Of a stretch of DNA of 43,977 bases, positions 16,601 through 43,977 are shown piece by piece. A program made the translations under genes and the position numbers. Source of the DNA: a virus. Lineage: Duplodnaviria > Heunggongvirae > Uroviricota > Caudoviricetes. How positions within the stretch are numbered: position 1 is the stretch's first letter; each line of letters begins with the position of its first letter. The notes beneath the pieces are model-generated. The model saw only the letters and a list, made by a program, of their open reading frames with translations. It searched no databases and was not told the origin of the DNA. The stretch lies in IMG/VR virus record IMGVR_UViG_3300042940_001755. The stretch is one strand, 5' to 3'.

Positions 16601-16937
16601 CTAGGGCTGCGAAAGTAGCAGCCGTATCGGAAAGGGTGGTCTGTGTAGACTTAGCAATGTCACTAACGCCACTTAGTGCTTCGCCCATAGCAGCTGTTCG
16701 GTCTGTTACTGCGGCTATTTTATTCTCCAGTTGGCCAAATTCAACAGTGATATCCTTGGCTACTTTTGCCATCATCAACAAGGAGCCAACCGCAGCGCCT
16801 CCTACTACTAAGTTCTTGAAGCCATTTACCATACCTCCGACATTCTTTGTAATGTCTGACACAGTATGATTGAGAGTCTCCATATCTCTTTGGACCTTGT
16901 CGACTTTGGCGCTGACTTCGATCTCAATACCTGACAT
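4659..16937 (-). CDS. Tape measure protein, 4092 aa, with internal GH73-like peptidoglycan hydrolase
   Basis: N-terminal tape-measure domain (FQLSQGLGAGVLRGEEFNSVMEQA); Ala/Gly-rich helical composition; follows the tail chaperones; strong SD (AGGAGG) upstream; C-terminal F(A)xGG.V.GPGT..SDSIPA.LS.GEFVVNA motifs typical of tape measure proteins. Confidence 0.93.
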   Translation of the reverse strand: MSGIEIEVSAKVDKVQRDMETLNHTVSDITKNVGGMVNGFKNLVVGGAAVGSLLMMAKVAKDITVEFGQLENKIAAVTDRTAAMGEALSGVSDIAKSTQTTLSDTAATFAALGSSAASLKPSTEALLTATKAIQAASTIAGGNLEGFKAAVFQLSQGLGAGVLRGEEFNSVMEQALPLAGAIADSLHVSTGELRQMAAAGKLTSEQVFGALIGQAGALEAKLANITPTLDAQMGRVKESFKTTFDEFLKGTGYTTQFSQALGTITNKVGDVTKSAFEMGMALRDGVDAFREKWGMAIKPALWFFDIIARRAKAVLDAFGITAFFVRSFASAELAVSHFFNVFVVRMGSVGTVLSSLENFKTTGLTGVFGSLEKSMGMSLKATMSSAGLFLNFFETSFLAGIRAQMSAVGHLLYSSLESIGLSKALKLDAFVFFGAKLNTVLSTIVSFTKSSFSKLARAMSRTEFFYLFDTFGLIGKGIKALIPEDALSGLLNFLDDLADKLDINKVFLNAAAGARHFLREAADFIDLIPGLTLFTSTLRKAAKVAGNFTGLKGLGGNLKNLVTGLRFSLDTTSFGAVKIVVMRLIRDLVKSVSALAKKGFAAINLGKLSFKLKDLFPTPSFDLSALQSYFSKGFKAFKDWATALISRFSLPDVDILGKLKTVMDAVHNFVKDRLAALTSTLPTLSFGDFFTKTVEAIEESLPSLDDVVGYIKGFYEKVVHYFFLIYDEVIAHSWWTDLVIDVVDGAKEMVSTVAKYISAFADYVIAAFKTVYDAGSKLFGKIADSFNIDTLQAKLSGVAASMAAAFTSFKSGKLVVAISTGDFKGVGSALKEIGHNMANSSGVIFAKAVLLHLTGKFLPSLLPKGDILGLLEGAVKRAGQRAWMQLASSLKDTDLAKNLANMSGSAVGAFLGDTFASFVDNLPGTISLIFGVIASGMRAMLENLGGVIGPAFQGLFKVADTLELGNALGLVGGILFGNNVLNVLKWMGIFETRIQGLQDKLEPLMKFFTGRFRSGMTGSLLQTLSREMFGGARKFVFLGAAALALDFVGGFDSVFQDQPIGHAVFDALAMAMMAFGKDLPTLMSRYVTTPFRGILGSGLRSAGLTSLGNWILPTAGPRASMISVASAMISGVHDLFTTRAAALMRPGTRTFMEALLLGRSVGSIPPALRAAIPAWQMALIAAERAGRHSIRTSLGSIVATTPVIGPMVAGLQSLANTMRTSTTAGGAFARAMSSLVRPLTVVAMLAGLFASMGAFAAEDQTVKVDVKPTESPYKKMMEDIRGPLKSGLDAIKEVTSVIWDNFVMIDTALIGGVALLKIFGFLARVSEAAILSGASGTALIGLALRPATSGFAKLAAGVQFFSMQTRVAAVLIGSLFTVLAKLSSEDALAPLMNNIGESVGDALNIDNSGYLDKLHSISSATGDFFKSMFSFLDQSKKLATWGLIGALVGGFGFWGVRMKQLAAEARIARRELNPMQASNNFVGPRVPGSVGTPTFIGPMNAGFNRNAPYRGAAPVVATKSSAGVRMAGGALLAADLLGAFDSAIDPDSIGHIFIRAAAGALVLFGRTLTDGLLGMLGKAASPWGLAIGGIIAAAIFTGLKMSKTEDQGGVPKGFFSELMSLETLSVAAFGVFAVGARKAVLYWGEIRAAAEVARVAQTASLAAFNVQQAFVGPLAPGMPGYVGAPTMFGGRAYHAAGAPPVAPVVGSFTARAAAAMAASPLTYMPATMMGKAMPMMTKIGATAGMAFAAGFATTELFGLKDYGTEATLIGGLIGWNLIGGLITKITPILSTGLAGMFGLLVVSGGLLWAYFSGNGTLSERMDQAMHKMKEIIGMGTKLRKNTGDGLDAPMTAFAKDNNFSLNYDMTRINMDILSPKQRNKLEGAFDKFYESMSELKKKVDEGEEITPADRDATQRKLGNLERQYARALSETRFDFKGKMPDIKSFEKFEGFSNADYAKAILENPGTFASAKLGRGAQSQKDWKEARKGIELFDGVKKGVELFERVAKSSATNSVTPNLTTAINGVSATTFAAMKELRDNMAEGSTGSLWGQRSNAQLEATSKEGLAIMAALQARIDAEVAVSQQSILFGKELTELGNRMSKVDLKIDWDVTSATEDLRNQLSQATFALDYWTKKLKDRNSGDTPAKAVTEDMFKAAGLVLPKKDDPKYVTMNRPAWNEQQRQEYADVTAYSEYAVPEMATGVEYDDAQFRADTADIMKKRAALSKELAAPDMAASARVHDESARAKMYAKQEADRAIEWGALAGSKLSSTLANLSGKVGIELPAGHIALGDKESAAVKDILKGVSDTLARLDAPEISKQEAMPDMPRQEDFTKEGKSQWTRSGFTKTSVPDFEGYEKAMTAFTEMQKQMALSVADKEKAASDPEYASKLRSKAANDIFDKVNGNAAARALNNQSVFESNSIDPSRVNARYGANAAQDASAKIQREMLIQQFSKGVDKSAFEASAKRVKAIMESIKIPDYQPLLAAVNSIDSTITGESLQFLSKEQLAALDKAATDIEIIESKLKNSELLPEQSAALLAEKFKIIEESSKITESIYHRIGSKITEAMGKAGFDDAKVAANQGMSPQMYAAGAALTAAEKDRGKSTSVSEWVTRSLEVHRLTLEVQMLNASLALTGDEMAQAFSDIGVTTAAAMSKLDGKLPFALFRAGRRAKVDLAAASDEASFKRAMKEGAVVERAKLLLTKQYQSLKAGFESAKSALSLSFDESSFGRVSSSLMNTLINVANGFEIALSDAMSNPDLWKSLTAQMEILKDDAAILSGLDTIAKDVANSKRESGKANYDRVTAAKPNLNLSRAEYSFVPAADKAAFTAEADLQRVYDALDSMTLTPVLADTADSMFKNGSTAKEISDTLSKIGGDDFTAKWGDAYKASLSPLQLNSTATEENTKAILSWTSMLQAKPATAVPAVDTAPAKLEKTDYAIHKSTPFAQDMLTRAKPYADKLGLPADALVAQSAWETGWGKAIRTKEGGGSTNNLFNIKATKNWKGGRSARPATDGGYFRAYESLEDSLADYVALIQKAPRYAKAVIAAKAGDVNQYFKELQAAGYAGASTHYASDLSKLNVRGKAAARNKYAVPDETAKAAVSIKEAAKKPAELINASFQEVSNQVAASSEQLVDTVINIKERAADETQHLAGRVTREKPYDRSVAQYEADFEAYKSDFHAKRRVATGNEGLGIEPIAYNLADIAQSAELTTFAEQIKLAKEALDSATNAEDAAKAQEALLQYQSGLESLTTSIMENAKSIENAGKSFKDGMKGFAESTFKDLLEGNTKGIGKKMLDGFTGHVTDTLSKGLAASFGFGRGGMMDKMMERTGSMLFAGPGSLLGSIPGVGDLLSGLGGGSLVGKTPEDTFSSAVDKFAASVGLMGAGGVGAAAAAAASSGGIMDTIGSVAPWLLGGAGVIGAGYLLKNGISQDVLKGAGYGKADIGNINTLFGSSGEDFDPFNASLFDSKSDKTSSFLSDLFTEKSRGELTSSIKSAGGNPWLDDGMKSVIAGKSDGMFDWLIGDDGFLGKNGSIANIFSSKTKEGEGGMLDWLIGDNGIWGFLKKMIMGENMDGTGGLVGGIASIWSSLGFAEGGHVSGPGTSKSDSIPAMLSDGEFVVNAKATRKHAGLLQAINSGSELVHRAEGGFIGTAMSLASPIMSLVGSINASSANAELEKAAKELQKAALMLMGGGKGGVADGISSAMSKALPTTKGDKGMFSGITDWLGITSPDTSVDMSPVAAAEGSLTDTLDKFTGKTTTSAMMSPVDAKGLTSKLDEMTKPDSGFFSGIGDSISSWFDGGGGDAASGLTRVPIEKTADFMNASPDIQSALSSALPDGITAQNSSLSSVLGGGKGGGGLSSLFGGGSSADSFVGPMQPDQGMFSGLSTMMDDMTTMMDDMLGGLMDSLSGLMDGLMDGLSGAMSGIMDGLSGALGGIGDLLGGAGGGIMDGLSGLGGMFMGMFADGGHVSGPGTSTSDSIPALLSNGEFVVNAKATAQHAGLLKAINSGSVIKRAMGGGVGSIPTSPAILTTPTMASNTAAAKAGEKAVSNKSSVVNMNITGDISRQTRSEIYKMLPDITQGVNNNNKESNYRS
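4915..6172 (-). repeat. Duplicated ~47-aa C-terminal tape measure motif (copies at ~6035-6172 and ~4915-5058)
   Basis: FAEGGHVSGPGTSKSDSIPAMLSDGEFVVNAKATRKHAGLLQAINSG versus FADGGHVSGPGTSTSDSIPALLSNGEFVVNAKATAQHAGLLKAINSG. Confidence 0.9.
7720..8120 (-). other. GH73 (FlgJ/glucosaminidase-like) domain within the tape measure protein (approximate bounds)
   Basis: LVAQSAWETGWG...NNLFNIKATKNWKG...FRAYESLEDSLADYVALIQKAPRY...LQAAGYA matches FlgJ-type muramidase motifs. Confidence 0.85.
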
Positions 16938-20786: not shown

Positions 20787-21974
20787 TTAGCCGTGGAAGA
20801 TTGGTAAGATACCTAAAGACAACACAGATGAAGCTTTACGATCCCAAACGCCTGTCGTAGCGTCTGTAGAAGTAGCTGCAGTTAATACTTTCTGTGTGCC
20901 GCCTTCCATTACACCGTAGTAGTTAGCATCTGAAGGGAATGCGTCTTTGCTACCAATCCAGTCGTAACCAGCAGGTGCAACAACATATCCCCAACGATTC
21001 CACACAGATGTAGAGCCGCCGCCTTTGAATTTACGCGCATCACGGTAAATTTCAGTAGGTTCTGGAACTGACAATGCTTTCATTGCCAATGCACCAGGCA
21101 ATACTACGAATGAGCAATCTGTACCAGCAATGTCAACGCCTGTACCAGTGTTGATTTTAGCCAATTCAGCCGCAGAGAATGCCGCAGATGCACGTGTAAC
21201 AACTAAACGGAATTTACCTTGGAAGATAGAATCGAAGTTCATGTTGCCTTCAGTGATGCGATCTTCGTCAACTAAGTTAGCTGAGCGGAAAGACGACAAT
21301 GTTTTAGGGCTAACAACTAAGTAGCACCAATCTGGTTCATAGTCTTTGAACGCTGTACCGAATGCTTGTAAGATTGTTTCCGCTCTTACCGCACCTGAGA
21401 TAGCCGCGTTAGTACCTGCAGCACCACCACTAGCCAACATTAACGCAGTGTTACCTGCATCGTAGTAGAAACCGTAGTTTTTGCTGGTAGGATCGTTGGT
21501 GAAAGATTGACCGCCTAAGCCGCCCGCTTTCGCGCCGTACAATGCTTCGGTCATCGCCACACCTTTCAACACAGACAAGATAGCGTTGTGTTCATCTTGC
21601 GCACGAGTTTCACCAAAGTCACGACCCATTTTAGCTAAGCCGTCTTGTTGTGTAACAACTTGCTGCATGTTGACTTTCTCGGCACCATGCGTACGCACAG
21701 TTTTGATGTATGTTAAGTAATCAGAGTTGAAGCTTGTAGCCGTACCATCAGTAGCATCTGTTAAAGATGCAACGTTGATGGTAGGGTTCATCGGTTTGAA
21801 CCAACGAACTTGACCAATAAAGGTTTCTGTGTTGGTGTCGATTAATGGGTTGTCGCCAACGATACCAGTGCCTGATAATTTCTTAGCAGTTGTGTAAGCT
21901 TCATCACTGTATGCTGTGATTGCTTCTTGTAAAACATAATTTGTTGCGCCTGCAACGTTAGTACGAACTGTCAT
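20787..21974 (-). CDS. Major capsid protein, 395 aa
   Basis: Size, position after the scaffold and before the adaptor, strongly biased codon usage, coat-like sequence. Confidence 0.85.
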   Translation of the reverse strand: MTVRTNVAGATNYVLQEAITAYSDEAYTTAKKLSGTGIVGDNPLIDTNTETFIGQVRWFKPMNPTINVASLTDATDGTATSFNSDYLTYIKTVRTHGAEKVNMQQVVTQQDGLAKMGRDFGETRAQDEHNAILSVLKGVAMTEALYGAKAGGLGGQSFTNDPTSKNYGFYYDAGNTALMLASGGAAGTNAAISGAVRAETILQAFGTAFKDYEPDWCYLVVSPKTLSSFRSANLVDEDRITEGNMNFDSIFQGKFRLVVTRASAAFSAAELAKINTGTGVDIAGTDCSFVVLPGALAMKALSVPEPTEIYRDARKFKGGGSTSVWNRWGYVVAPAGYDWIGSKDAFPSDANYYGVMEGGTQKVLTAATSTDATTGVWDRKASSVLSLGILPIFHG

Positions 21975-21978
21975 TTAC

Positions 21979-22695
21979 TTAATTCCGGTTAGGTAGAGGT
22001 TTTCCCTCTGAGATGTGTTGTAACACTTCCTCTTGAGTCATCGCGAAGATAGAGCTCTTTTGAGTAGTGCCAGGTGTAGGAGAAGTCGCTTGACTTCCTG
22101 TTCCTGAAGATACTTTGGCCTTGAATAAGAAGGCATTATCTTCATTCTCAGCGAATACTTTCATAAAGTCACGCACTGAAATACCAGACTTGTGCACCCA
22201 TTTGCCGTCATCGGTTTGGACCAATTCAGCGAGTACCTTGCCATGAGTCATTTCAGCTGCTGTATTGCCACGGAATTGGTAGGTAGACAGCACAGCCGTC
22301 ACTTCATTGTCGCGTGATAACTCAGTGTTTCTTTTCGCCAACGCAGCTAGCTTGGCATCCTTCTCTGCTAATTGCATGTCGAAGGCTTCTTTATGCTTGC
22401 CTTCTTCTGTCAATCGTGCAATTTCTGCATCGCGCTCTTTCTTCTCTAAGGCATCAGCCTTAGCCTGAGCAGCGTCTCTTTCGGCAAAAGCACTGTCTAA
22501 CTTACCCTTGATTGGCTTTAACTGCTCTTGAACCATTGCTGCCAATTCTTCTTCCGTGATGGTAAGAGTCTTCTTAGTAGAAGCGGTTTCGGTAATAGTT
22601 GCCGCAGCAGGTGCTGGAGCAGGCTTTGCCGTTTCGGTTGCAGGGGCAGGTGTCGCAGCTTCTTGTGCTGCTGGTTGGGTTGTTTCTTCGCTCAT
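21979..22695 (-). CDS. Capsid scaffolding protein, 238 aa
   Basis: Pro/Ala/Thr-rich N-terminus, long coiled coil, NEDNAFLFK...SSGTG C-terminal pattern; precedes the capsid gene. Confidence 0.8.
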   Translation of the reverse strand: MSEETTQPAAQEAATPAPATETAKPAPAPAAATITETASTKKTLTITEEELAAMVQEQLKPIKGKLDSAFAERDAAQAKADALEKKERDAEIARLTEEGKHKEAFDMQLAEKDAKLAALAKRNTELSRDNEVTAVLSTYQFRGNTAAEMTHGKVLAELVQTDDGKWVHKSGISVRDFMKVFAENEDNAFLFKAKVSSGTGSQATSPTPGTTQKSSIFAMTQEEVLQHISEGKPLPNRN

Positions 22696-22790: not shown

Positions 22791-23228
22791 CTAAAGGATT
22801 GCCCAGTCTTCCGACAAAGTGTCGTTGATACTCGGTACCCACGTACTTGTAGAGCCGTTTACATTCTTGATCGCCAAGTATGAGTTTAACTGTTCAGATT
22901 CGGGGACTAATGTCACATACATGCCCTTGCCATTCCACCCTTTTCGGCTAACAGATGCACCACGCTTAAGAGCCTCAATTGCCAGACCGAAAGTCATCCT
23001 TTCAATCTCACGGTAGCTGGAGTCAAATTGCACTTTAGGTGTCCAAGAGATGTAACCGCCGTAATTGGGGTGATTTGGAGTACACGCACCACCATTATCT
23101 TCCACCAAGTACCCGTCATCCTCGCCATTCTCATTCGTAGGCAAATCCCATCCGCGCAATTCGTTGTAGGCAAGACGTGTCATCGGGGTGGCAGTTACTA
23201 ACTTACTCCCGTAATATGCCTTCATCAT
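22791..23228 (-). CDS. DUF2829 / Tad2-like (Thoeris anti-defence sponge family) protein with extra N-terminal domain, 145 aa
   Basis: MTFGLAIEALKRGASVSRKGWNGKGMYV...WVPSINDTLSEDW is the DUF2829 signature; this family includes Tad2 as recalled. Confidence 0.75.
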   Translation of the reverse strand: MMKAYYGSKLVTATPMTRLAYNELRGWDLPTNENGEDDGYLVEDNGGACTPNHPNYGGYISWTPKVQFDSSYREIERMTFGLAIEALKRGASVSRKGWNGKGMYVTLVPESEQLNSYLAIKNVNGSTSTWVPSINDTLSEDWAIL

Positions 23229-23551
23229 GCGAACACCGAGTTGTGACCGGCTTCAGAGAGCCAAAGATGCTGCTTGAGGCGATAGCCCTCTAACTGCCAA
23301 ACTTTATCTCTGGCATTGCCGCGTGCAACAGAGCGCCCTATGGCTTCATTGAAGTTCTCTGGAGACGCACATGCTGATTCTCCAGTGACTTGGAAACCGT
23401 TTGTTAAGGTAAGTAAGCACACCGTGACAGTAGTGTCAGGAAACACATAATACGCTTCACCAATAATCTGCGCATCAATGTGTTCAGGGGACAAGCGAGG
23501 AGCAGTAAGTCCTTTCGCGACAATCTCCTCCTCTAATTGCTGCTCGTTCAT
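23225..23551 (-). CDS. Phage gp49/gp66-family protein (candidate Acb4-like sponge), 108 aa
   Basis: TAPRLSPEHID...TVTVCLLTLTNGFQVTGESACASPENFNEAIGRSVA...VWQLEGY matches the Phage_gp49_66 pattern; the Acb4 link is recalled, not verified. Confidence 0.7.
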   Translation of the reverse strand: MNEQQLEEEIVAKGLTAPRLSPEHIDAQIIGEAYYVFPDTTVTVCLLTLTNGFQVTGESACASPENFNEAIGRSVARGNARDKVWQLEGYRLKQHLWLSEAGHNSVFA

Positions 23552-23739
23552 ACGAATGCCTCGATTCTTTCTGCCAAGATATACGCGTACTCACGCATCG
23601 CAGCTAACTGACGTGTCATTCTGGTGTATTCCTCTGGAGACGCAGTAGAGTCATCACGACTCAAAAAGTCATTTAAGGCATTGATCTTTAAAAGTAATTC
23701 GTCATTCTCTTGAATGACTCTTTGTTGATAAGGTTGCAT
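23548..23739 (-). CDS. Small helical protein (crAss001_48-like), 63 aa
   Basis: MQPYQQRVIQE.DEL..KI.AL.DFL...Q..AM.EY..IL.ERI..F pattern; ATGA-coupled to the next gene. Confidence 0.65.
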   Translation of the reverse strand: MQPYQQRVIQENDELLLKINALNDFLSRDDSTASPEEYTRMTRQLAAMREYAYILAERIEAFV

Positions 23740-23741
23740 TG

Positions 23742-24122
23742 TCAGCCTATTCCGTAAAAGCCTAAGTCATTGTCATATTTTGACGGCTCAGGTATTGGAG
23801 AGAGAATGTGTTCTTCGGTAAGGATATCTGATTCCTTGAGTAACACACCGTTAATCCGAGAGCGACCAGCCACCGGAATGATCCCAGTATCGATTGCCTC
23901 ATCTAAGTATTTTTGGTAAAGCTCATCTGGGAGACCACGTGCGTGCATCTCATCTAATGTTGCCTTGATTGACTGCTTGGAGACTGCTTCAGCATAAAGC
24001 TCACGGAGACCTGCTCTGGCCTTTATCATATCAGCACTGTTGGCAAAGAAAGCATCATGGATGGTGCTGGTAGGGATGTTGTTCTTCTTGCCCCATAGGT
24101 GAAAGCCTTTTACGAGTGTTGC
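23742..24122 (-). CDS. MuF-RNA polymerase exon 2 (126 aa, contains catalytic motif C IHDAF)
   Basis: Manual translation ATLVKGFHLWGKKNNIPTSTIHDAFFANSAD runs in frame into the listed 23742..24029 ORF; IHDAF corresponds to T7 RNAP IHDSF (Asp812). Confidence 0.9.
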   Translation of the reverse strand, partial: ATLVKGFHLWGKKNNIPTSTIHDAFFANSADMIKARAGLRELYAEAVSKQSIKATLDEMHARGLPDELYQKYLDEAIDTGIIPVAGRSRINGVLLKESDILTEEHILSPIPEPSKYDNDLGFYGIG

Positions 24123-25077
24123 CGTTATATTACAGCCAGTTCGTTAATCTTGCTGTGTGTGTCAGATTTTGAGGTTAATAATTAATGGTTTTTCCAGATC
24201 TTTCCGGACTCAATTCCTGCGATGGTGCCTCTATGGACGCCATACGTTGCAGCAATTACTTTCTTTGGCACTGAATCTGCTAGCAGTAGCCTTATCTCAG
24301 CTACCGATTCTGGTGTTAATTTCCCTTTCTGCGAAAGATTAGGGAAGGCGTCTCTGGAGATATGCTTCCAAGTCTTGTTAAGACGAATGTGGCTTATAGC
24401 CCCTGTGCTGCACCCAAATGCTTTTGCAATATCTGCGGTAGATTCGCCTCTAGCGCAACGCTCAAGAATTAGGATGACATCCTTCTCAGCCAGCAGCGCG
24501 TGTACGCTCTCCTCACCCACTTTGCCATTTCCTTCTGCATACGAGTGTTGAATATTTTCTGCAGTAGTGGACCACTCTAAATTAGCAACAGCGTTATTGG
24601 CTGGGTTACTATCTTTATGGTTAACAACAGGCTTTCCCATAGGATTGTCGATAAACGTCTCTGCCACCAACCGGTGCACTTGGACTGTCTTGACTACACC
24701 ATTGTGCCACATGCCAAATTTGACGTAACCTTGAGAGGTAATGTTCCCTGCCAGCAAGGTCCCTGTGTTGTCATTCCTAAGTCTGCCTTGATCGCTGACA
24801 GAGTATTGTGTATCTTTGTATTGTTTCCAAATTTCATTCATTTGTAGCTTCTCCAATGTGTTCTGACACACATCTCCATATTCCGATGGAGTCTAGACTA
24901 TATCATACATCCTTGTCCTTGCGCTTCGGCATCACTTGACACCTACTCTACTCTCTTATTACGATTTCGATAGTCGTTGCACCCCGCTATATAGTAGCAT
25001 CCTGCTACACAGGGCTCAGTATTACCCGTTCTGGGCTTCCACTGAATTCACAAGGTTTTAAAACGACAGCTTTGTTT
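24123..25077 (-). mobile_element. Group I self-splicing intron (955 nt, IA-like core) with homing endonuclease ORF
   Basis: Exon 1 ends in U and the intron ends in G (24123). P1: exon AAACGAU pairs with intron GUCGUUU with a terminal U-G. Core elements: P AAUUCAGUGGAA (25037-25048), Q AAUACUGAGC (25014-25023), R GUGCAACGACUAUCG (24968-24982), S AUGAUAUAGUCUA (24894-24906); P3 CCUUGUG/CGCAAGG. Removal restores the reading frame. Confidence 0.92.
24182..24841 (-). CDS. Intron-encoded NUMOD4-HNH homing endonuclease (I-HmuI-like), ~219 aa
   Basis: EIWKQYKDTQYSVSDQGRLRN (NUMOD4-like); VHRLVAETFIDNP...VNHKDSNPANNAVANLEW (HNH); two C-terminal HTH-like repeats; SD GGAG before the ATG at 24841. Confidence 0.9.
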   Translation of the reverse strand: MNEIWKQYKDTQYSVSDQGRLRNDNTGTLLAGNITSQGYVKFGMWHNGVVKTVQVHRLVAETFIDNPMGKPVVNHKDSNPANNAVANLEWSTTAENIQHSYAEGNGKVGEESVHALLAEKDVILILERCARGESTADIAKAFGCSTGAISHIRLNKTWKHISRDAFPNLSQKGKLTPESVAEIRLLLADSVPKKVIAATYGVHRGTIAGIESGKIWKNH

Positions 25078-28000
25078 ATCGTTTGAGTGGTTGCCATTAA
25101 CCGCGTAAGCTGTCCTGGCCTTTGTAACATCTGCAATGTCGTTAATCTTGCCTTCTTTGTTGATGATCTGTTCCCACCAAGTTGCTTCTGTCTTTTGAGG
25201 AACCTGAATGACATTCATTACTGTATTGCCATCCTTGTCTTTATAGAGCAGTTTCTCTTCGAAGGCTTGGGTGAAGTTCTGCTCTAGAACCTTCCCATCA
25301 AAGTTCACCCAAGGGACATTTGTCCAGCTCTTTGGGAGCTTATTTGAGTAGAATAGCTGAAAGCCCTTCGTAACATCTAAGATCTGAAACAGTTCTATTT
25401 TAGCGTACTTGGCACCTGTTCGGCGATCTGTACTTGCCTGCTTTCCTCCTAGAAGGATGTCAGCCAGTGTAGAGTCTGGTTTAAACCAACTAAATCGCTT
25501 CAGCACCTGTTCAGTCAATGGAGTTTTAGGGTCAACACCTAACATCTCACTGAAGCGAGATCCGAACAGGACTTTCACCTTATTATCTAGACCTAACAAA
25601 TCACCCACAACTCTATCAACTGTCTTGCCTTTCTTGCGTTCACCAAAGAGCGTGATTTCACCAATAGCCTTCCAATCGAAGTCAGCGTTCTTAGGCTTGG
25701 CATGGCGAAGATAGTCTTCTGCCAGCCTTCCGAAGAACTTAGTGAAATCTTTAAGGATCGGCACTTGTTCACCAAGGTGATCACTCATGATGTTCGCAAT
25801 ATCCTTAAAGTCCTTTGGTGTGACAACCAAATCGTACGTTGCAGACATCTTCTCGACTAAAGCACGGTTGCCAGGGTCTAAGAAGTAAAGTTGCTCCATA
25901 ATCTCGTCACCGGGATCTAGACCTTTGTTGAAGATATCTCTGACATTAGCTCTCAAGGTCATCAGCTCGTCAAAGGTGTCAGGGTCGTAAGACTTATAGC
26001 GGGCTGCTCTGGCAGAGATCTCGTCCAGGATGGTATCACGCTCTGACGCCTTCACTACTAAGGTGTTGCCCTGCTTCTCTAGTATCTTGGCTAATTTGCC
26101 TTCAACATTGAGAATACCTGTACGTTCTCCAGCACCGTAAAAGGTAACCATGTTCTGAGCCTTCGCCGCCTTCCTTAAGTCTTTCTCAGATAGGCCGAGA
26201 CGCTCATTCATGACCTTGAAACGTGGGTCATTGTAAGTAGCCGCAGCTATCTCATCGTATAGGCGGCGCTTCTGGGTGGTAGGAACTACATTGCTAAGTT
26301 CAGCTAACTGTTTGTTCTTAGTTGCCAGCGCGATAATCTGAGCACCTGAGGATGAAGCATCTTGCTCTAAAGCAAGAGCTGTTTTGTAACTATTCATCTT
26401 CGCCACAACATCAGTTGCACGTGGTGCAGCTAATGCCTTGACACTCTCAGCACCGATTTCCTTGTTCAACCTCTCAATTAGTCCAATCGCGTCCCCTGGA
26501 ACTACCTTAAGGCCGGCATCATTTGCAGCAATTAATGCAGCCTCCTGATTGGTCTTCATAAAGTAAGGACTATCAGCATCTTTAATTACAGTAGCCGCGC
26601 CAAATCTCTCAGCCTTTAAAGCTCTTTTCTGAGCCTCTATTAGCTTAAAGACTCTGGCACTCCTTGGAACCGAAGCAGACTTCAGATGCTCCTCCATAAA
26701 CTCACCGAGCTCCTCCACCACTTGCATGGCAATGTAACGAGGTGTGTCACCTTTAGAGCGCTGTTCGAATTTAGCCTTATTCTCCGCCACCTTGGCTGCA
26801 GAGAATTTCTCTCCTGTGGCTTGGTCGAACGTCTTATAAGTAGCCCTCTCCATCCGCTCTTTGGTAAGCGAAATGTCAGCGGTATGCAGCCATTTAAAGG
26901 CTTCGCCAACATCCTTAGATGTCAATTTACCTTCTGATGCAAGCCTTAATAAGTCTGATTGCGCCTGTATTACCTCTGCGGGACTGCTAATGTAATCAGG
27001 ATCAGTCTTATTATTCACACCAAGCAAACGCACTAACCCTGCTGCATCTTGCCGTTCAGATAATAGGCCTGGGGTAGATACCACCTCGCTAACAGCAGCA
27101 GAAGTCCCGTCTTTGAGATAATTGTCAATCTTAGCAGCTTCCATAGCGAATCTAAAGAACTTACCAAGCTCTTCGCCTTCGACCTGTTGCACCATGCTTG
27201 ACTCAAGAACACCTCTGATGTCTGCCGGTTTACCTCTCATCAGCTTATTGCCGACATCGACCATCTCAGGCCACAATCTATCGGCAATCTTCTGCCGCCC
27301 AGTAAATGTCAATGAGTTGTCTTTGCCTTCAAAGGCATCAGTCAGGCCTCCTAAGAAGGCGCCAGTCTGATCTCTGAAATTCAAGTAACCGTCATATCCG
27401 AGAATCTTCTCTTCCTTCGTGTTAAGGAATGGCCGGAAAGATTCACCAGACTGAGGGCTAATCAACCCACGGTCATAAATGCGAGCCCGATGATCAATAA
27501 ACGGGTTATTAGAGAATGAATCACCCGATTTACGCAGCCACTCCATTGATTTAAAGCGTTCATACGCATCTCCACGTCCTGCAATGTAGTGTTTGTACTC
27601 ATTAAGTCCATCGTAGAATTTAGCCTTACCTCTGTCATCCACAAAGTAAAGAACCTTTTGAACGGCATCATAGAAATCAGGGTCCACCCTATATTCAGTC
27701 TGGGATGCCCAATTTAAGGCGTCCACAGTGTTCTTGTCAACAAAAGACTCAGGGAAGTCACTAAACGAGCTTGTAGAGGTAATCGGGATACGAGTATCAT
27801 AATTATCTTCAGTAAAGTACGTCTTGTAGCCCTCTCTGAACTTAAGACGATTCTCAGGTTTCGTTACAGCAACCCGCAAACCCAGCTCTACCTTTCTGGT
27901 GAGGTGGGAGTACTCTTGCACTCTAGGGTCTGTGACCCTAATGTTGTATGCGAGCGTATCGTAATACGGGCCAAATAGATTCCCTGACATTCGCGACTTC

Positions 28001-30051
28001 ATGCGTCGTTTCTGGACGCCAAAAGTCTCTACCTCAAACAGATCGGTATTGCCTTCCAGTAATGCCAGACCTGTCTCATACCACTTATCCTTTGTACCGT
28101 TTAAGTTAGCTTGGTTGTACAGATCTCTGCCCAATGCGATAGCTAGCTGGTCTCTGTCAGGGGTATCCGCTAATGACAATCGGTTGGCGAAGCGTAAGTA
28201 GAACATCTGCTTACTTGCTTCATCGAGGCGATGGTTGATTATTAGTGGAATATGTCTGTCAAAAGCATCCCTTAGCTCTCTCGCAATCTTAGGGGCAGTT
28301 CTGTCTTCCCACAAATTCTTGGCCTTAATATTGCCAATGAAGTTGTCATGAAGATCTTGAAGCTGAGTTGGTCCCAGAACAGGGTCAATGTAGTTATCTT
28401 GAAGTAACTTCTTTAAAGGGTCAGAGCCGCTTCTTATCTGAGTCTCAATCGAATCCGAAACGTTCATCACGTCAAACTTGATTTGTGATTGTGATACAGC
28501 TTTGAAGTTTCCCCAACGCTCGCCATTCTTACGATAACGTGTGAATACAATCCTCAAGTTATCAGCAATAACAGCTCTTTCATTGGCTCCCATCTTTTCA
28601 TTCAAGCCTTCTACGAAGGTAACTATGAAGTCTTTATCTACCTGCTTCAAATCTGGACTATTCCGAATCAATTTCAGATTGTTATTAAGCACGCCTAGAT
28701 TTGGCTGATACAGACGGGTGTCCTCATAACGCCCTGTTACTGGATTGAATATCATCTGATCTTCGCGGGGGAGGCTTGTTAGCACTCGCCGCTTCATCGC
28801 TTTCTTGTTACCAATAAGCGCTCCACGGAAGTTAGTTAGTGAGAGAGTGCCGTCAAGCTCGCCTGCTTGTAAGAGATAATAGTCTTTCAGTGTCTGTGTC
28901 AATGCAGGATCCGAGAAGAAATCTTCAGGCATTGTGGCATGAAGTTGCATGGCGTCTAACTTCGCCTTAGCGTTAGCAAAGCGCATGGTGTCGTTAGGGA
29001 TAGTGTAAGTGCTATCAGTGATCTGTCTCAGTTCATTCAAGCCTACTGTGTTTCCCTCAGGATTAGAGAATTTGTCAACGGTAAGTTGACCTGTGTTGAA
29101 CATCTCAACCTTCTTGTAATCCCCCAGATGCCGTAGCTGTGTCTGTTTAGGTTGGCGGAGAAGCCAATCATTATAAGACTCATGCAGAGGCAACATCCCG
29201 TCGTAATAAGCTTGCTGATCTTTAGTGAGACTTCCGAGATTCCTCTTTCTGACCTGAGCGACTGCCTCCAACTTTCCCATGTCATCCCAAGACTTAAGGA
29301 CGGGGGTGGTAGTTGATCTACATCTATAATGGGCAGGAGGTAGATGCTCTGTATCACCAATAGGGTAAATCTGACCATCTCGATGAGCACAAATTGGAGT
29401 GGTACGGGAATCAAGTACAGCAACATACTGCCACCCGCTAATAGCTTTTTCATTCGCCTTATAAATCTCATGATCGGCCTGATTCGTCACCGAGGTGACT
29501 GCCGTGGTTACTAATGCAGCTGCTTGGTTCTTCGATATCGCAGAGATAGCTCTAACACTCTTAGCTAACTCGCTGTTAGTGTTGCCCTCTGCAAGACCTC
29601 TCCGAATAGCAGACTCAATTCTTATCTTTTCACCTTCAGAAATGCCTGCCCAGCCCTGCGCCAGAGTCTTTTCTTCGTGCAGAGGTCTCTCTAGCACAAT
29701 CTCTTCCGCAATACGCCGATTAGGTCTTTCTGTCTTCCAGATGTCTCCGAAGAGCTTTTCGACTCCACCATACGTGAATGAGGCTTGGTCACTTGCGAGG
29801 CCCAGTAAGTCATTCTTAGTAGAGCGAAATGCATCTGTATATGTCTTTTTAATCTCCTTATCCACAGCCTCTCTGAATATCAAAAAGCCCGCAGTGGAGA
29901 AGTTGGCGTCATTGACTAACTTATCAACACGAACGGCATGGCCATCTAGGATCAACTCGACTCTTCCGGCAACTCTCCGCTCAAATAAGCGCACCATTGC
30001 GGCTCTGTCAATGATTCTATCGTACAGCTCTGTATTCGCATTTATAGCCAT
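25078..30051 (-). CDS. MuF (SPP1 gp7/Mu gpF) minor head protein fused to T7-like single-subunit RNA polymerase, exon 1 (1658 aa)
   Basis: N-terminal WQYVAVLDSRTTPICAHRDG...PPAHYRCRST (MuF). RNAP motifs: DHRARIY (DxxGR-like, ~27476-27496), EQDASSSGAQ (motif A, ~26338-26367), RKAAKAQNMVTFYG (motif B, ~26134-26175), AVNGNHSND (T7 NFVHSQD). Confidence 0.92.
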
Positions 30052-30818: not shown

Positions 30819-32351
30819 TTAACTCTCCATTGCTAGCGTGCTAGCGAAATTGTCATTTGTTTGAGGTGCCGCCTGAGTAAGCACATCACCAGTGATTTCC
30901 TGGATCCCTTCCTCGTCATTGTAAGAAGGATCCACCATGTCGTTAGACTTGAGCATTTGCAACCACAAAGAGCGGGGGATCAATCCTTTCTCATACCACT
31001 CTGTCGCTAGTCGCAACCAATCTGCGCCTAAAGGCACCGGATCAAAGTCAGTGGATAATGTGAACTTCACCTCTGTCAACGGAATATCAATGTTATAGCG
31101 CCACTTAATCATAAACGCGATGATAGCTCGCATGGTGTGGCTTACTTTATTACTAAGTACACCCAGCTGCGCTGTTTGGGCAGCATTACGAATCTCTAAG
31201 GCAACACCTGACTGAACATTCTCAGGCGATAACATTCTCACACCCAGTCTAGCAATCTCTTCGATGGCCTGGACGATTGAGCGATCCATGTCCGATAAGG
31301 CCGCAGTAGGCGTATCCAAGATTGTAGCCTTACCGTCCATCGGTAGACGAATCCAAGAGCCTAAACCTGCTTCAACTATCTCGTCAAAGGCGTCATCAGT
31401 CAAATCAGCACAGATAACAGGTGTGTAAGTAGCTGCACCATACAGCAAGTGATTGCGTCGACTGACCTTGTTATAAAGACTCACTTCTTTGTCCACAATA
31501 GCGGTCAACAGGGGCGGCACAGGCTTGATAGAACCATTAAGAGGCCACGCAGGGATTGATGTGACTCTCTCGCCATGCATGAGAATATTGTCGAATGTGT
31601 CTTTCAAAACCATTCCGGATGCTACATCTGTCAAGTCTCTGACTGAGGTTGTATTCGTCTGCTGTCTATCTTCACTCTTGCGCCCTGTTTCCTGGAATAC
31701 CCTGACTTGATAATAGCCCTCTTCAGTCAACTCATGTACCCAGCAGGTGTCGAGGACTTTCGGGTGGAACTCGTTGTCAGGGGAGTACACTTCTTCAAAG
31801 CCTCTTACAATTACTTGACTAAGGCCTCTGCTGTCTACTTTCCAGTTGATAATGCTTTCTGATTTGTGAATCACAGGATAGGGCTTAAAGTTCTTAAGCT
31901 CTTCAGGGTCAACCTCATCAGGATTGGCGATGTTCGGATAGTCCAAGAACACCCAACAACGAGAAGACTGCATCTCTTCCCACAACGCTTCATCTAGGAA
32001 TGCCGTCATCGGTGAGTCATCTTTACAGAACTGTTGCATCAGCCATTCATGGGCTTCTGCAGGAGCCGTGGCAGGCAGTTCAAGGATTGGTTGCTTGCGA
32101 AGTAATCCGCCAACCAGCATTCTGGCGAATTGAGCTGAGATACCGGGCAATTCAGCCTCGGCTTTATAGAACTTCCACTGATCATAGCTCATCGAGTGAG
32201 AGAATGGAATCAGTAAATTCTCAAAATTGTACACATCCAGCACTGCATCATACTTCTTTACAGCTGCTTCTCCGTTACATACAGCTCGGCAACGTCCCCA
32301 TAATTTAGCGAACAAGGAGTAAGCAGCGCATGGGGTCGCTACCGTAACCAT
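30819..32351 (-). CDS. Portal protein (DUF4055-like), 510 aa
   Basis: Size, sequence style (PPLLTAIVDKEVSLYNKVSRRNHLLYGAATYTPVI), and position upstream of the MuF gene. Confidence 0.85.
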   Translation of the reverse strand: MVTVATPCAAYSLFAKLWGRCRAVCNGEAAVKKYDAVLDVYNFENLLIPFSHSMSYDQWKFYKAEAELPGISAQFARMLVGGLLRKQPILELPATAPAEAHEWLMQQFCKDDSPMTAFLDEALWEEMQSSRCWVFLDYPNIANPDEVDPEELKNFKPYPVIHKSESIINWKVDSRGLSQVIVRGFEEVYSPDNEFHPKVLDTCWVHELTEEGYYQVRVFQETGRKSEDRQQTNTTSVRDLTDVASGMVLKDTFDNILMHGERVTSIPAWPLNGSIKPVPPLLTAIVDKEVSLYNKVSRRNHLLYGAATYTPVICADLTDDAFDEIVEAGLGSWIRLPMDGKATILDTPTAALSDMDRSIVQAIEEIARLGVRMLSPENVQSGVALEIRNAAQTAQLGVLSNKVSHTMRAIIAFMIKWRYNIDIPLTEVKFTLSTDFDPVPLGADWLRLATEWYEKGLIPRSLWLQMLKSNDMVDPSYNDEEGIQEITGDVLTQAAPQTNDNFASTLAMES

Positions 32352-32563: not shown

Positions 32564-33000
32564 ACTAGCTCCGTTGGGCTTGCTGTAAATTCGATTTGTT
32601 CATTGTAGATCTTCAAGATCTGTGGAAATGCCACACCTGTCTCAGTGACGCTCAACTCGACAGTTCCTCCAGTCACTACTGTGTGCGGTAGCTGGATGTA
32701 AACGTGATTGGCCTTCGCAGTCTTCCATGCGGTTGACAAACCTGGTGACACTGTGGAAACCACTGCTGTTCCTGCCTTTAAGGCGTAGACCGCTAGCCCG
32801 ATCGTGACTTCATCACCAGCACTATAGGCTGTCGCTGGATCCCACTCCCCTTTATCCGCTGGCACTCTCACCGTCAATACAGTGTTTACACCGTTAGTAT
32901 CGGAGAGGACAGCTTCGTAAGTGCTGGTGGCGCGGTCTAATTTGCTTTTTGTCAAAGACACAGGGAGCTCTGTTTGCGTGCCTAGTGGCAAACTAATCAT
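32560..33000 (-). CDS. Putative structural protein with CBM5/12-like W..A.AY motif; paralogue of 40343..40930
   Basis: GVNTVLTVRVP...GEWDPATAYSAGDEVT...NHVYIQLP...SPTELV aligns by eye with the 195-aa protein. Confidence 0.65.
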   Translation of the reverse strand: MISLPLGTQTELPVSLTKSKLDRATSTYEAVLSDTNGVNTVLTVRVPADKGEWDPATAYSAGDEVTIGLAVYALKAGTAVVSTVSPGLSTAWKTAKANHVYIQLPHTVVTGGTVELSVTETGVAFPQILKIYNEQIEFTASPTELV

Positions 33001-33457
33001 GGTAAATTCCTTTATGGTATAGTTTAACTTCTTTGGCGCGGCGATTGGTTAGACCTTTGACAACCTTGCCATTATCTTTATTCCAACGCATAAACTGGAA
33101 GGTGATGGCGTCTTCATCTTGGCCAGCATTGATTACCTTCACAAGAGTAGAAGACGAGAACGCTGCTACTCCAATATTATAGCACAATGACACTAGCGCG
33201 TCAAACTGATACTGCTTGAGAGGAGTCTTAATGGCAGCTCTAACAGCGTTAACATATATTCGCATGGTTACGCTGAATAGCGTGGCAGCTCGCTCCATTG
33301 TGATCGGAGCGTCAGTCATGCGGACTTTAGTGCCATCTTCATAATAAGTCGAGCCGAACCCGATAGTGGGGACATCGCCACTGTCTAAATAAGGGGCAGA
33401 TTCAAATCCTTCTCCACCTTTCGTAAACACAATTCCATCAAAGCTTAAATCTTGCAT
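32993..33457 (-). CDS. Lysozyme / endolysin (GH24, T4/P21-type), 154 aa
   Basis: EGFESAPYLDSGDVPTIGFGST gives the E-x8-D-x5-T triad; FDALVSLCYNIG; GLTNRRAKE. Confidence 0.92.
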   Translation of the reverse strand: MQDLSFDGIVFTKGGEGFESAPYLDSGDVPTIGFGSTYYEDGTKVRMTDAPITMERAATLFSVTMRIYVNAVRAAIKTPLKQYQFDALVSLCYNIGVAAFSSSTLVKVINAGQDEDAITFQFMRWNKDNGKVVKGLTNRRAKEVKLYHKGIYHD

Positions 33458-33482: not shown

Positions 33483-34514
33483 CTATAATAAAAAGTCTGA
33501 TGTGACCAATGTAGTAACTAGATTTAACTTAATCTCCATCGATGCTGTCGTCGGAGTAGCAGGGGTCGTAGTAATTTGCACCACGGCGTAAGCTGTGGCA
33601 CCTGTACCATAAAACGCCCATCTAACCTGCCCAACAGTAGTAAAGGCTGCTGTCCCGATCACTCCGCCGGTCAGCGCTAAGCCCGTCAAGTCGATTTTGT
33701 CAACTCCGGTTGTGAAATCAGTAATAATATCTCTGCTAACACCTGTTCCGGAATCGGCGGAGACTACAAAGCGGAAGCTATCTGCTCCATCACCGCCTGT
33801 CAAGGTGTCTACGTGCAAGCCGCCCCATAGAACATCATTCCCCAAGCCACCGTCTAAACTGTCAGTGCCTGTATCGCCAGATAAGGTGTCGTTACCTAGA
33901 CCGCCTACCAATGTATTGGCTGCAGTGTTACCTGCTATTGTGTTATCCATTGAGTTACCGGTACCAGATACTGTGGCTATGCCCGTTAGCTTGAGATTAT
34001 CTACTTCAGATGGCAAAGTGTACGATATAAATGTCTGTACGGTGTCGATGCCTTCTCCTGAAAGTTCTGTCACAATATCTCCAGCGTTATCTACGATATA
34101 TACATCATTACCAGCGCCACCTATTAAGGTATCACCACCGGTGCTACCGTCTATCGTGTTATTCCCGCTGTTCCCCGTCACGATATTCGAAAGACTATTT
34201 CCGGTACCGCTGATATCACCAACGCCTTGCAATTTCACATTCTCTACCTTACCTGGCAGTGTATACGACGTTGCCGTGCTCAGAACTGTATCTGTGCCAC
34301 CTGTGATGGACTCTGTGATGATATCTGTTGTTGTGTCTACAATGTAAGTGTCGTTTCCGAGGCCACCGACTAATGTGTCGATACCGAGGCCGCCGAACAA
34401 AGTATCAGCGCCTGCTGTCCCTGTTAAGGAATCGTTTCCTGCTGTACCCACAATCCAACCCATCGTAGGCGAAGGTGTTATTCCCGCGGCCATATACGTT
34501 GTTAAGACGCTCAT
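33483..34514 (-). CDS. RTX (hemolysin-type Ca-binding repeat) protein with serralysin-like C-terminus, 343 aa
   Basis: Many GGxGxDxL/Y nonapeptides (GGLGIDTL, GGLGNDTY, GGAGNDVY, GGLGNDTL, GGDGADSF); C-terminal DIITDFTTGVDKIDL...TSDFLL. Confidence 0.9.
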   Translation of the reverse strand: MSVLTTYMAAGITPSPTMGWIVGTAGNDSLTGTAGADTLFGGLGIDTLVGGLGNDTYIVDTTTDIITESITGGTDTVLSTATSYTLPGKVENVKLQGVGDISGTGNSLSNIVTGNSGNNTIDGSTGGDTLIGGAGNDVYIVDNAGDIVTELSGEGIDTVQTFISYTLPSEVDNLKLTGIATVSGTGNSMDNTIAGNTAANTLVGGLGNDTLSGDTGTDSLDGGLGNDVLWGGLHVDTLTGGDGADSFRFVVSADSGTGVSRDIITDFTTGVDKIDLTGLALTGGVIGTAAFTTVGQVRWAFYGTGATAYAVVQITTTPATPTTASMEIKLNLVTTLVTSDFLL

Positions 34515-41231: not shown

Positions 41232-41623
41232 CAGTCCTCCTTCAGAAATCCATTAGCACACTTAGGAGGTAAATTGGAGCGGTCCACTTTGAGCTTCATG
41301 TCCTGGATAATTCTATCTAACTTTCCCCCTAAGGAGTCACCCAGGCCTTTAAGGTCAGCCTTGGTGGCGTAATGTTTTACCATACCAATCTCGAGGTCCT
41401 CTAGCTTGTCCAATTTCTGAGATATCTCTTTGAACATGCTGCTCAGCTCGCTTTTCTTCACATAGTCAGAGGCTACCAGCAACTTAAGGTCGTTGACCTC
41501 TTTGTAGGTGCCATTGAGGTGTGTCTGCATATCTTTAATCTTTGACGCAGCCATCGTGAACAATGTAGTGACTAAGAAGCCTACTACAGCTAAAATAACA
41601 TTTGTAACGTCTTGTGAGTCCAT
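41231..41623 (-). CDS. Single-TM coiled-coil membrane protein with internal duplication, 130 aa
   Basis: VILAVVGFLVTTLFTMAA hydrophobic segment; repeats SDYVKKSEL...KLDKL and KHYATKADL...KLDRI. Confidence 0.6.
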   Translation of the reverse strand: MDSQDVTNVILAVVGFLVTTLFTMAASKIKDMQTHLNGTYKEVNDLKLLVASDYVKKSELSSMFKEISQKLDKLEDLEIGMVKHYATKADLKGLGDSLGGKLDRIIQDMKLKVDRSNLPPKCANGFLKED

Positions 41624-43406: not shown

Positions 43407-43620
43407 AGCCTCCTTGATTAGCTTTTAACTTTAAGAGCACTTTAGGGACACAATCTTATATCGCTTGCTGTAAATCCTAAGGAGTGTTAAAACAGCTGGT
43501 GATAATGTATTGCGTCTCTGAAGTGCTCTCGTTGGTGTTGTTCCACATAAAGTAGTCTCTCCTTTAAAGGACTCTAAGGGATTATCTTTAATAGTAATTA
43601 TTAATGATTATTGTGATATT

Positions 43621-43660
43621 AACTCTAACACCCATTATGGCACTCTAACACCCATTATGG
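43621..43660. repeat. 20-bp tandem duplication (A/C)ACTCTAACACCCATTATGG
   Basis: 43621-43640 and 43641-43660 differ only at the first base. Confidence 0.9.
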
Positions 43661-43977
43661 TTCTTTAAAGCTTCTTTTCAGTCTCTTTAAAGCTCCTTTA
43701 TAGATACTTTAAAGTACTTTAATAGTATATTGTAATAATTATTATCATAATTTCCATTATGGCCTTTAATGACCTTTAAAGTACCATAATAGTCTTTAAA
43801 GGCCTTTAACACCCATTATGGTTCTTTAAAGCTTCTTTTCAGTCTCTTTAAAGCTCCTTTATAGATACTTTAAAGTACTTTAATAGTATATTGTAATAAT
43901 TATTATCATAATTTCCATTATGGCCTTTAATGACCTTTAAAGTACCATAATAGTCTTTAAAGGCCTTTAACACCCAT
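43646..43977. repeat. 161-bp tandem direct repeat (two full copies plus the start of a third, cut by the window end)
   Basis: TAACACCCATTATGGTTC starts at 43646 and 43807, and TAACACCCAT at 43968; the two full copies look identical by eye. Confidence 0.92.

Follow-up and report, generated by a model that had tools for sequence, protein, structure and literature searches.

A single gene in the structural module of a tailed phage joins a MuF head-morphogenesis domain to what is, by sequence and predicted fold, a complete and deeply divergent RNA polymerase (RNAP) of the T7 type. The gene lies on the minus strand at positions 23742 to 30051 of a 43,977-nucleotide window, the whole stretch of DNA that we analyzed, from IMG/VR record IMGVR_UViG_3300042940_001755 (Caudoviricetes). 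Virion-carried RNAPs are known from few phage lineages, each with its own packaging device. SPP1 gp7, the reference member of the family to which the N-terminal part belongs, is a portal-binding minor head protein. We consider it likely that the fusion protein described here is a MuF-anchored, capsid-carried polymerase that would start transcription at infection and then hand over to a second RNAP encoded by the same phage.

The fusion gene consists of two exons separated by one intron, and its spliced product is 1784 amino acids (aa) long. Its ATG at 30051 and its stop codon at 23742 are the exact ends of the interval in which an original prediction, made from the sequence without database searches, had placed a MuF-polymerase fusion. 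The motif strings on which that prediction relied all fall in one minus-strand frame and, in spliced numbering, begin at aa 207 (WQYVAVLDSRTTPICAHRDG), 238 (PPAHYRCRST), 853 (DHRARIY), 1230 (QDASSSGAQ), 1293 (RKAAKAQNMVTFYG), 1655 (HSND), and 1679 (IHDAF). The parts of the gene, all on the minus strand, are as follows.

25078..30051, minus strand: exon 1, aa 1-1658, ending AAC GAU (..HSND)
29011..30051, minus strand: MuF, or SPP1-gp7-type minor head (head morphogenesis), domain, aa 1-347, with the Pfam core at aa 145-248 (29308-29619)
28357..29010, minus strand: linker, aa ~348-565, conserved within the fusion family
25078..28356, minus strand: exon-1 part of the predicted T7-type RNAP fold, aa ~566-1658, equivalent to T7 RNAP ~35-787
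27475..27495, minus strand: DHRARIY motif, aa 853, equivalent to T7 DWRGRVY (residues 421-427)
26398..27114, minus strand: helical insertion module of 239 aa, aa 980-1218, just N-terminal to motif A
26338..26364, minus strand: motif A, QDASSSGAQ, aa 1230, in which Asp1231 (26359-26361) is the equivalent of T7 D537
26134..26175, minus strand: motif B, RKAAKAQNMVTFYG, aa 1293, in which K1297, Y1305, and G1306 are the equivalents of T7 K631, Y639, and G640
25078..25089, minus strand: HSND, aa 1655, equivalent to T7 H784-D787, with the 5' splice site after its final U
24123..25077, minus strand: group I intron, 955 nt
24182..24841, minus strand: intron-encoded homing endonuclease of 219 aa (NUMOD4, HNH_3, and two helix-turn-helix [HTH] domains), 3' of the catalytic core
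23742..24122, minus strand: exon 2, aa 1659-1784, with motif C (IHDAF, in which Asp1681 at 24054-24056 is the equivalent of T7 D812) and the C-terminal ..FYGIG

The N-terminal part is, by its profile matches, a member of the MuF/gp7 family, as had been predicted. Pfam PF04233 (Phage_Mu_F) matches aa 145-248 with 66.6 bits (cut-off 29.6; expect value [E] 4e-18), TIGR01641 (phageSPP1_gp7) scores 76.8 bits against a cut-off of 39.65, so that both lie above their curated thresholds, and the head morphogenesis family phrog_241 covers aa 1-347 (E 4e-73). The linker has no Pfam match at E<=0.09, and a Pfam scan of aa 250-570 returned nothing credible; the stretch of it that was modeled (aa 459-565) is helical, and residues before ~105 of the own-sequence model or ~135 of the homologue model described below align to no RNAP. 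A predicted complex of the portal protein with MuF residues 1-400 scored 0.00, a value that counts neither for nor against binding.

The claim that the remainder is a complete single-subunit RNAP required more than sequence comparison. A phmmer search of exon 1 against the sequences of the PDB found nothing at E<=1, and a profile of the fusion family found weak matches there to T7 RNAP, N4 RNAPII, and mitochondrial RNAP (E 0.025-2), with colinear alignments at DWRGRVY and motif C for T7 RNAP and at motif A for the other two. Sequence searches alone were thus insufficient, and structure prediction was needed. We modeled two proteins with AlphaFold: residues 430-1545 of an uninterrupted homologue with 68% identity (predicted local distance difference test score [pLDDT] 83.7, predicted template modeling score 0.81) and the window's own exon-1 segment, aa 459-1658 (pLDDT 78). 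The homologue model matches T7 RNAP with Z 29.3 over 521 residues at 3.5 A, spanning T7 residues 39-883 and so including the N-terminal domain; mitochondrial RNAPs follow at Z 25-27.5 and the N4 mini-vRNAP at Z 19.4, and the top Foldseek matches are all single-subunit RNAPs (E about 1e-17 to 4e-17). For the own-sequence model, the best 50 matches in structure comparison (VIA) are likewise all single-subunit RNAPs, led by mitochondrial RNAP (Z 14.2) and T7 RNAP (Z 13.4), and the alignment runs from T7 residue 35 to 787, stopping exactly at the HSQD equivalent, which is where exon 1 ends.

Profile-profile comparison and the active site agree with the fold. With hhalign, the fusion family aligns at 97.8% probability (E 8e-13, 594 columns) to the canonical, T7-like enzymes that its phages also encode; phrog_414 (RNA polymerase) matches at E 9e-13, and phrog_2166 gives a weak match only. 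The DSS3_VP1 fusion scores 28.8 bits on Pfam RNA_pol (PF00940), and homologues carry PF00940 in precomputed annotation. The catalytic set is present (D1231 in motif A; K1297, Y1305, and G1306 in motif B; H1655 in HSxD; D1681 in motif C). Across 39 family sequences with identities as low as 19%, there is no exception to the motif A Asp or to the motif B Lys, and at least 90% retain the Tyr-Gly of motif B and the Asp of motif C; D853, H854, R855, R857, and Y859 of DHRARIY are invariant across the family. With identity to solved RNAPs of only 10-18%, residues ~565-1784 therefore read as a complete T7-type single-subunit RNAP of great divergence, borne out by hhalign, by the fold matches to T7 RNAP and N4 mini-vRNAP, and by the presence of all motifs, and the domain is apparently active.

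The 239-aa insertion is absent from most relatives and sits at another site in some; it precedes motif A here and in L027, and a Pfam scan of the region (aa 975-1225) returned nothing credible. A homologous module of ~225 aa (~59% identity) follows residue ~1327, behind motif B, in relatives of the G001 type, and related modules with 42-49% identity are found in unrelated giant proteins, namely, P0195 (3748 aa), P0194, and P0202, the last with a GGDEF domain. From its distribution, seen in the window and in L014, L015, and L084, the module behaves like a mobile domain.

Motif C is absent from the unspliced protein, since the intron interrupts HSND|A just before it; because the motif lies in exon 2, splicing would be needed for activity. 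Without splicing, the exon-1 frame runs on from ..AVNGNHSND through 9 further unrelated codons to a stop at 25048, giving an open reading frame (ORF) of 1667 aa at 30051-25048, and the reading frame after the HNH ORF starts ..ATLVKGFHLWGKKNNIPTSTIHDAFF. A group I core (Rfam RF00028) is matched at 25108-24874 with 45 bits (E 9e-10), under the gathering score of 50. The exon sequence AACGAU pairs with the internal guide GUCGUU 17 nt downstream to form P1, with a U.G pair at the splice site, and the last intron base, at 24123, is G. Joining 25078 to 24122 across the 955 nt yields NGNHSND|ATLVKGFHLW, which matches both the uninterrupted DSS3_VP1 protein (NGNHSNDAVIVRRFHLW) and the family consensus, and the junction is contiguous in the DNA of the closest relative, L037 (87% identity across it). 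The need for splicing that the original prediction had assumed is thus upheld at the level of the join. The endonuclease within the intron matches Pfam NUMOD4, HNH_3, and HTH as well as phrog_59 (HNH endonuclease; E 8e-52), and by these signatures, the intron with its predicted homing endonuclease is a selfish element lodged where the catalytic sequence is highly conserved.

Other members of the family carry inserts elsewhere in the same gene. About ten IMG/VR loci, like EBPR siphovirus 1, have one within motif B, after residue 1302/1303; the insert follows residue 1296 in L037, 1264 in L086, and 1653 in L060. Insert lengths range from 340 to 1035 nt among L001, L015, L037, L040, L042, L048, L055, L057, L059, L060, L064, L067, L086, and L087. 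The MuF-RNAP gene is an intron hot spot, and these sites form the pattern expected of homing elements aimed at invariant catalytic sequence. The low share in runs X9 and X10 came from poor coverage; the intron sequence is present in both, and no intron-less joint was reported. In run X1, a 2508-nt lake-metagenome contig matches 24088-24105 and 25168-25197 with the two matches 107 nt apart. This is exactly the spacing expected without the 955-nt intron, but since the matching pieces are shorter than 31 nt, it no more than hints at an allele in the same lake that lacks the intron.

The fusion is widespread. IMG/VR holds at least 552 contigs with it; an exhaustive search of representatives at 50% identity gave 134 clusters, and a word-indexed search gave at least 353 clusters at 90% identity, nearly all with both PF04233 and PF00940, whose members usually bear the names "SPP1 gp7 family head morphogenesis" or "minor capsid protein." The suggestion that similar fusions might exist in databases thus proved right by hundreds. 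Deposited phages with the fusion are confined to EBPR siphovirus 1, in which the gene is split and the identity is 57%, and two roseophages at 31% identity, DSS3_VP1 and DSS3_PM1; in all of them the annotation is that of a head protein or minor head protein. Even P0238 and P0241, which at 19-25% identity lie furthest out in the family, have MuF at their N-terminus, so the fusion is old and has been kept. Five complete relatives (76-82 kb) have exactly one MuF domain each, and it is the one in the fusion, so that the fusion protein presumably does the head-assembly job of MuF in these phages.

The genomic setting is that of a head protein. Every long ORF of the window is on the minus strand, and together they make up a phage structural module in the order large terminase, endolysin, portal, fusion gene, scaffold, major head protein, tail tube genes, and tape measure. 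The neighbors of the fusion gene are as follows.

41623-42978, minus strand: large terminase, first in the structural module
32993-33457, minus strand: endolysin, between terminase and portal
30819..32351, minus strand: portal protein (phrog_145, E 3e-47; PF13264), upstream of the fusion gene
21979-22695, minus strand: scaffold, downstream of the fusion gene; the scaffold and major head pair matches phrog_206/phrog_247
20787-21974, minus strand: major head protein, downstream of the scaffold, the other half of that pair
4659-16937, minus strand: tape measure protein of 4092 aa (TMP_3 and glucosaminidase), after the tail tube genes

The fusion gene therefore lies inside the portal-to-scaffold slot of an SPP1-like head module. 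The original prediction had put it in the MuF slot of a late operon right after the portal; the slot and the late structural operon stand, but the gene is not immediately after the portal, from which a 137-aa ORF and two ~50-aa ORFs separate it. The order portal, fusion, scaffold, capsid is shared by the window, DSS3_VP1, EBPR siphovirus 1, and G001. The tape measure of G001 is 3826 aa long.

These phages also encode a second, canonical RNAP. The window is 100% identical, over the overlap, to a 107,670-bp lake-water contig of the Joint Genome Institute, which represents the 107.7-kb genome of this phage. Past the tail genes, the genome continues for ~7 kb with about 25 small ORFs, between which gaps are frequent, and then reaches the gene for the canonical RNAP, which lies outside the window, about 20-23 kb from its start (L107 16874-19674). 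Here too a group I intron, scoring 68 bits in Rfam and encoding an HNH_3/AP2 endonuclease, divides the gene, into parts of 513 aa and 218 aa; both polymerase genes of this phage have thus been invaded by introns, and the list of canonical RNAP homologues did not surface the phage's own intron-split copy. A canonical T7-like RNAP of ~740 aa, encoded behind a run of small genes of early type, occurs in 13 of the 13 IMG/VR relatives that are at least 90% complete (the five complete ones and eight more) and in DSS3_VP1, and the sole record without one is 64% complete. The canonical enzymes score 106-272 bits on Pfam (DSS3_VP1, 272), and in the relatives they end in EYAFA. The layout of early block, RNAP, replication genes, and structural genes is T7-like and is the same in the relative G001.

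We searched these regions for regulatory sequence. G001 (78 kb, L100-L103) has seven copies of a promoter-like 19-mer, CCCCGTTAAATTAACCCTT, all on the coding strand, located ahead of the late operon and of scaffold and capsid, where the early block opens, and within the replication region; three of the copies precede a second conserved element, CCGTC(C/T)CCCCT..ATTATAATT. Unlike G001, the 44-kb window yielded no T7-like repeated promoter. The early block of the phage itself has four intergenic cassettes (L107 11852-14810) with a 10-bp-stem hairpin, GTAGAGAGAC-AATTCC-GTCTCTCTAC, one copy of which shows compensatory GAAAC/GTTTC changes; each hairpin is followed, after ~30 nt, by a conserved ribosome-binding site with its start, GGAGTATTA(T/C)CATG, and could be a promoter, a terminator, or an RNA-processing site. 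This hairpin is absent from the window. Sigma-70-like sites are not enriched in the early region (15, against 12.4 +/- 3.5 expected), with a consensus that may not be that of the host.

Taken together, we favor the following scenario. The group I intron would splice itself out, giving the 1784-aa protein, whose MuF part would dock it on the portal or the procapsid, so that a few copies would be enclosed in the head. At infection, the polymerase would leave with the DNA and transcribe the first genes without host RNAP. These would be the block of about 25 small ORFs and the gene for the second, canonical T7-like RNAP, which would then take over in a relay of the N4 or P23-45 style that uses a MuF anchor. 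We infer each of these events, from packaging and ejection to promoter choice and timing, early transcription, and any pulling of DNA. A polymerase made only with head proteins cannot start its own expression, and encapsidation for the next infection would be the simplest explanation for its permanent fusion to the portal-associated head protein. The status of the fusion as sole MuF protein and the presence of a second, canonical RNAP strengthen this scenario and parallel the N4 and P23-45 relays.

Those precedents are informative both in what they share and in what they do not. N4 uses a relay from its virion RNAP to RNAPII (PMC4496689), and N4 gp50 (Schitoviridae) resembles the fusion in being a T7-related single-subunit RNAP encoded among late and structural genes, with a second T7-like RNAP for the next stage, in its fold, and in its role of capsid-carried early transcription as proposed here. 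It differs in being a protein of ~3500 aa, with N-terminal injection and C-terminal encapsidation domains and no MuF according to PMC5512222 and PMC13434306, from a short-tailed phage; the fusion has 1784 aa, a MuF N-terminus, and nothing after the polymerase, and its modeled fold is nearer the T7 and mitochondrial enzymes (Z 29 and 27) than N4. Differing in size, architecture, and neighborhood, and with a predicted structure nearer T7, the fusion is not, as modeled, a member of the N4 vRNAP family, which a 2017 survey confines to N4-like phages and prophages. In structure, the polymerase comes closest to T7 RNAP (Autographiviridae): the match extends across T7 residues ~35-883, and the motifs DxRGR, A, B, HSxD, and C follow one another in the same order. 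T7 RNAP is, however, an early, free, nonvirion enzyme of 883 aa, whereas the fusion has an N-terminus of ~565 aa made of MuF and linker, a gene in the head module, the 239-aa insertion, YGIG in place of FAFA, and only 14-18% identity. Thermus phage P23-45 is, like the phages considered here, long-tailed, with a polymerase fused to a virion structural protein. Its virion RNAP, as described in the preprint (bioRxiv 10.1101/2022.12.01.518664), transcribes pre-early genes including the gene for a nonvirion RNAP, but it is a two-barrel enzyme on the tape measure protein, where ours is a right-hand polymerase of the T7 type on a MuF head protein.

The anchor has precedents of its own. MuF domains carry C-terminal effector domains predicted to enter the host, and polymorphic toxins and polyvalent proteins share the arrangement of MuF followed by enzymatic cargo, according to PMC5512222 and PMC5576092; the cargo listed in those two surveys comprises toxins, RNases, ADP-ribosyltransferases, RelA/SpoT, and similar domains, and a search of these two sources by term did not find RNAP among it. 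True homologues with the same architecture and gene order are the "minor head protein-like protein" of the Naomviridae DSS3_VP1 and DSS3_PM1 and gp47 plus gp49 of EBPR siphovirus 1. The DSS3_VP1 fusion is uninterrupted at 1463 aa, lacks the insertion, and likewise coexists with a canonical RNAP, and the EBPR siphovirus 1 gene is split at motif B, not at HSND. A full-text literature search, whose coverage left out most subscription journals, found no description of a MuF-RNAP fusion, and we could not find the combination of a virion RNAP with the MuF cargo carrier described. It is on balance probable that MuF-anchored T7-type polymerases constitute a third, undescribed, and very widespread route of virion delivery, the others being that of N4 gp50 and that of crAss, phiKZ, and P23-45 with their two-barrel enzymes, that long-tailed phages of water and soil use it by the hundreds, among them the cultured Naomviridae with their deoxyuridine-containing DNA (dU-DNA), and that it would make early infection independent of host RNAP.

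Several observations weigh against a virion RNAP. Presence in the virion, ejection, and RNA synthesis rest on inference for every member of the family, and the papers on the Naomviridae say nothing of a polymerase in this gene. Ejection would mean moving 200 kDa of protein along a very long tail, since the 4092-aa tape measure implies an exceptional length. The T7-like layout could run the early genes on host RNAP, as T7 does, so that a carried polymerase is not strictly required, and neither polymerase could be assigned to a promoter class. On the polymerase itself, the exon-1 product alone scores 20.0 bits on PF00940, below the gathering score of 22, and the C-terminus reads ..LGFYGIG (family consensus WYGVG), without the FAFA "foot" of T7.

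Four other explanations were considered. The polymerase might act only late and inside the cell, tethered at the portal or procapsid or cleaved from MuF, to boost late transcription or couple it to packaging; its gene does lie within the late structural operon, and the canonical RNAP and host RNAP could in principle cover the early and middle program. We regard this as rather unlikely, because a polymerase made only along with structural proteins would be unable to start late transcription, and because the retention of the fusion down to 19% identity, as sole MuF protein in the genomes checked, argues that being tied physically to the head is important; MuF fusions of other kinds, moreover, are read as delivered cargo (PMC5512222, PMC5576092). 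Delivery might instead serve genome entry by transcription, or replication priming, rather than promoter-specific early mRNA synthesis. Internalization of T7 DNA is transcription driven, T7-type and mitochondrial RNAPs prime replication at origins, and a 107.7-kb genome behind a very long tail makes assisted entry plausible. The anatomy is the same in both cases, and pulling would still need promoter-initiated transcription, so that this role overlaps with the relay and the sequence does not separate them; a second RNAP directly after the early-gene block nevertheless fits a transcription relay better, and we think it quite unlikely that entry or priming is the main job.

The other two explanations deny the enzyme or the gene. 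Low identity to solved RNAPs, a Pfam score just under threshold, and a C-terminus unlike that of T7 would suit a polymerase-like part that has lost catalysis and serves as structural or DNA-binding cargo, a view made very improbable by the conservation of the motif A, B, and C residues and by homing introns that have repeatedly hit exactly these motifs, as expected under strong functional constraint. That the exons are separate genes or an assembly artifact, with no spliced 1784-aa protein, we find scarcely credible: the Rfam score of the intron is below gathering, but the identical sequence occurs in several independent assemblies and runs, the P1 U.G pair and the terminal G are in place, splicing here reconstitutes a motif found unbroken in the proteins of homologues and in the DNA of L037, and similar introns occupy other sites of the same gene in relatives.

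If the virion RNAP scenario is true, a MuF-anchored enzyme of the T7 type would be a new and apparently very common packaging device, and the annotation "head protein" of hundreds of genes would be corrected. It would also suggest how Naomviridae, with uracil in their DNA, could start transcription independently of host RNAP, and it would reveal a family of compact, highly divergent single-subunit RNAPs, presumably with new promoter specificities. The cultured members DSS3_VP1 and DSS3_PM1 make the hypothesis directly testable. Homing introns have entered both polymerase genes repeatedly, and at catalytic motifs, which makes these phages a useful system for the study of intron-mediated competition among relatives. 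Particular to this window are the intron at HSND|A and the 239-aa insertion before motif A, along with the second intron in the canonical RNAP gene outside it.

A search of INPHARED phages found no near-identical DNA. Three coupled small genes directly after the fusion gene (22791-23739) match crAss001_48/Sequestin (PF21825, E 3e-17), Phage_gp49_66 (PF13876), and Tad2-like (PF11195) and are, by these matches, possible candidates for antidefense sponges within the head operon. Between terminase and portal, at 33483-34514, lies a gene for a 343-aa protein with HemolysinCabind (RTX) repeats and a Peptidase_M10_C domain. Upstream of the first structural-operon genes, at 43600-43977, lies a 161-bp tandem repeat, of which ~2.3 copies are present before the window breaks off; palindromes of the form CTTTAAAG/ATTAAAG abound in it, and it could represent iterons, a promoter array, or a packaging signal.

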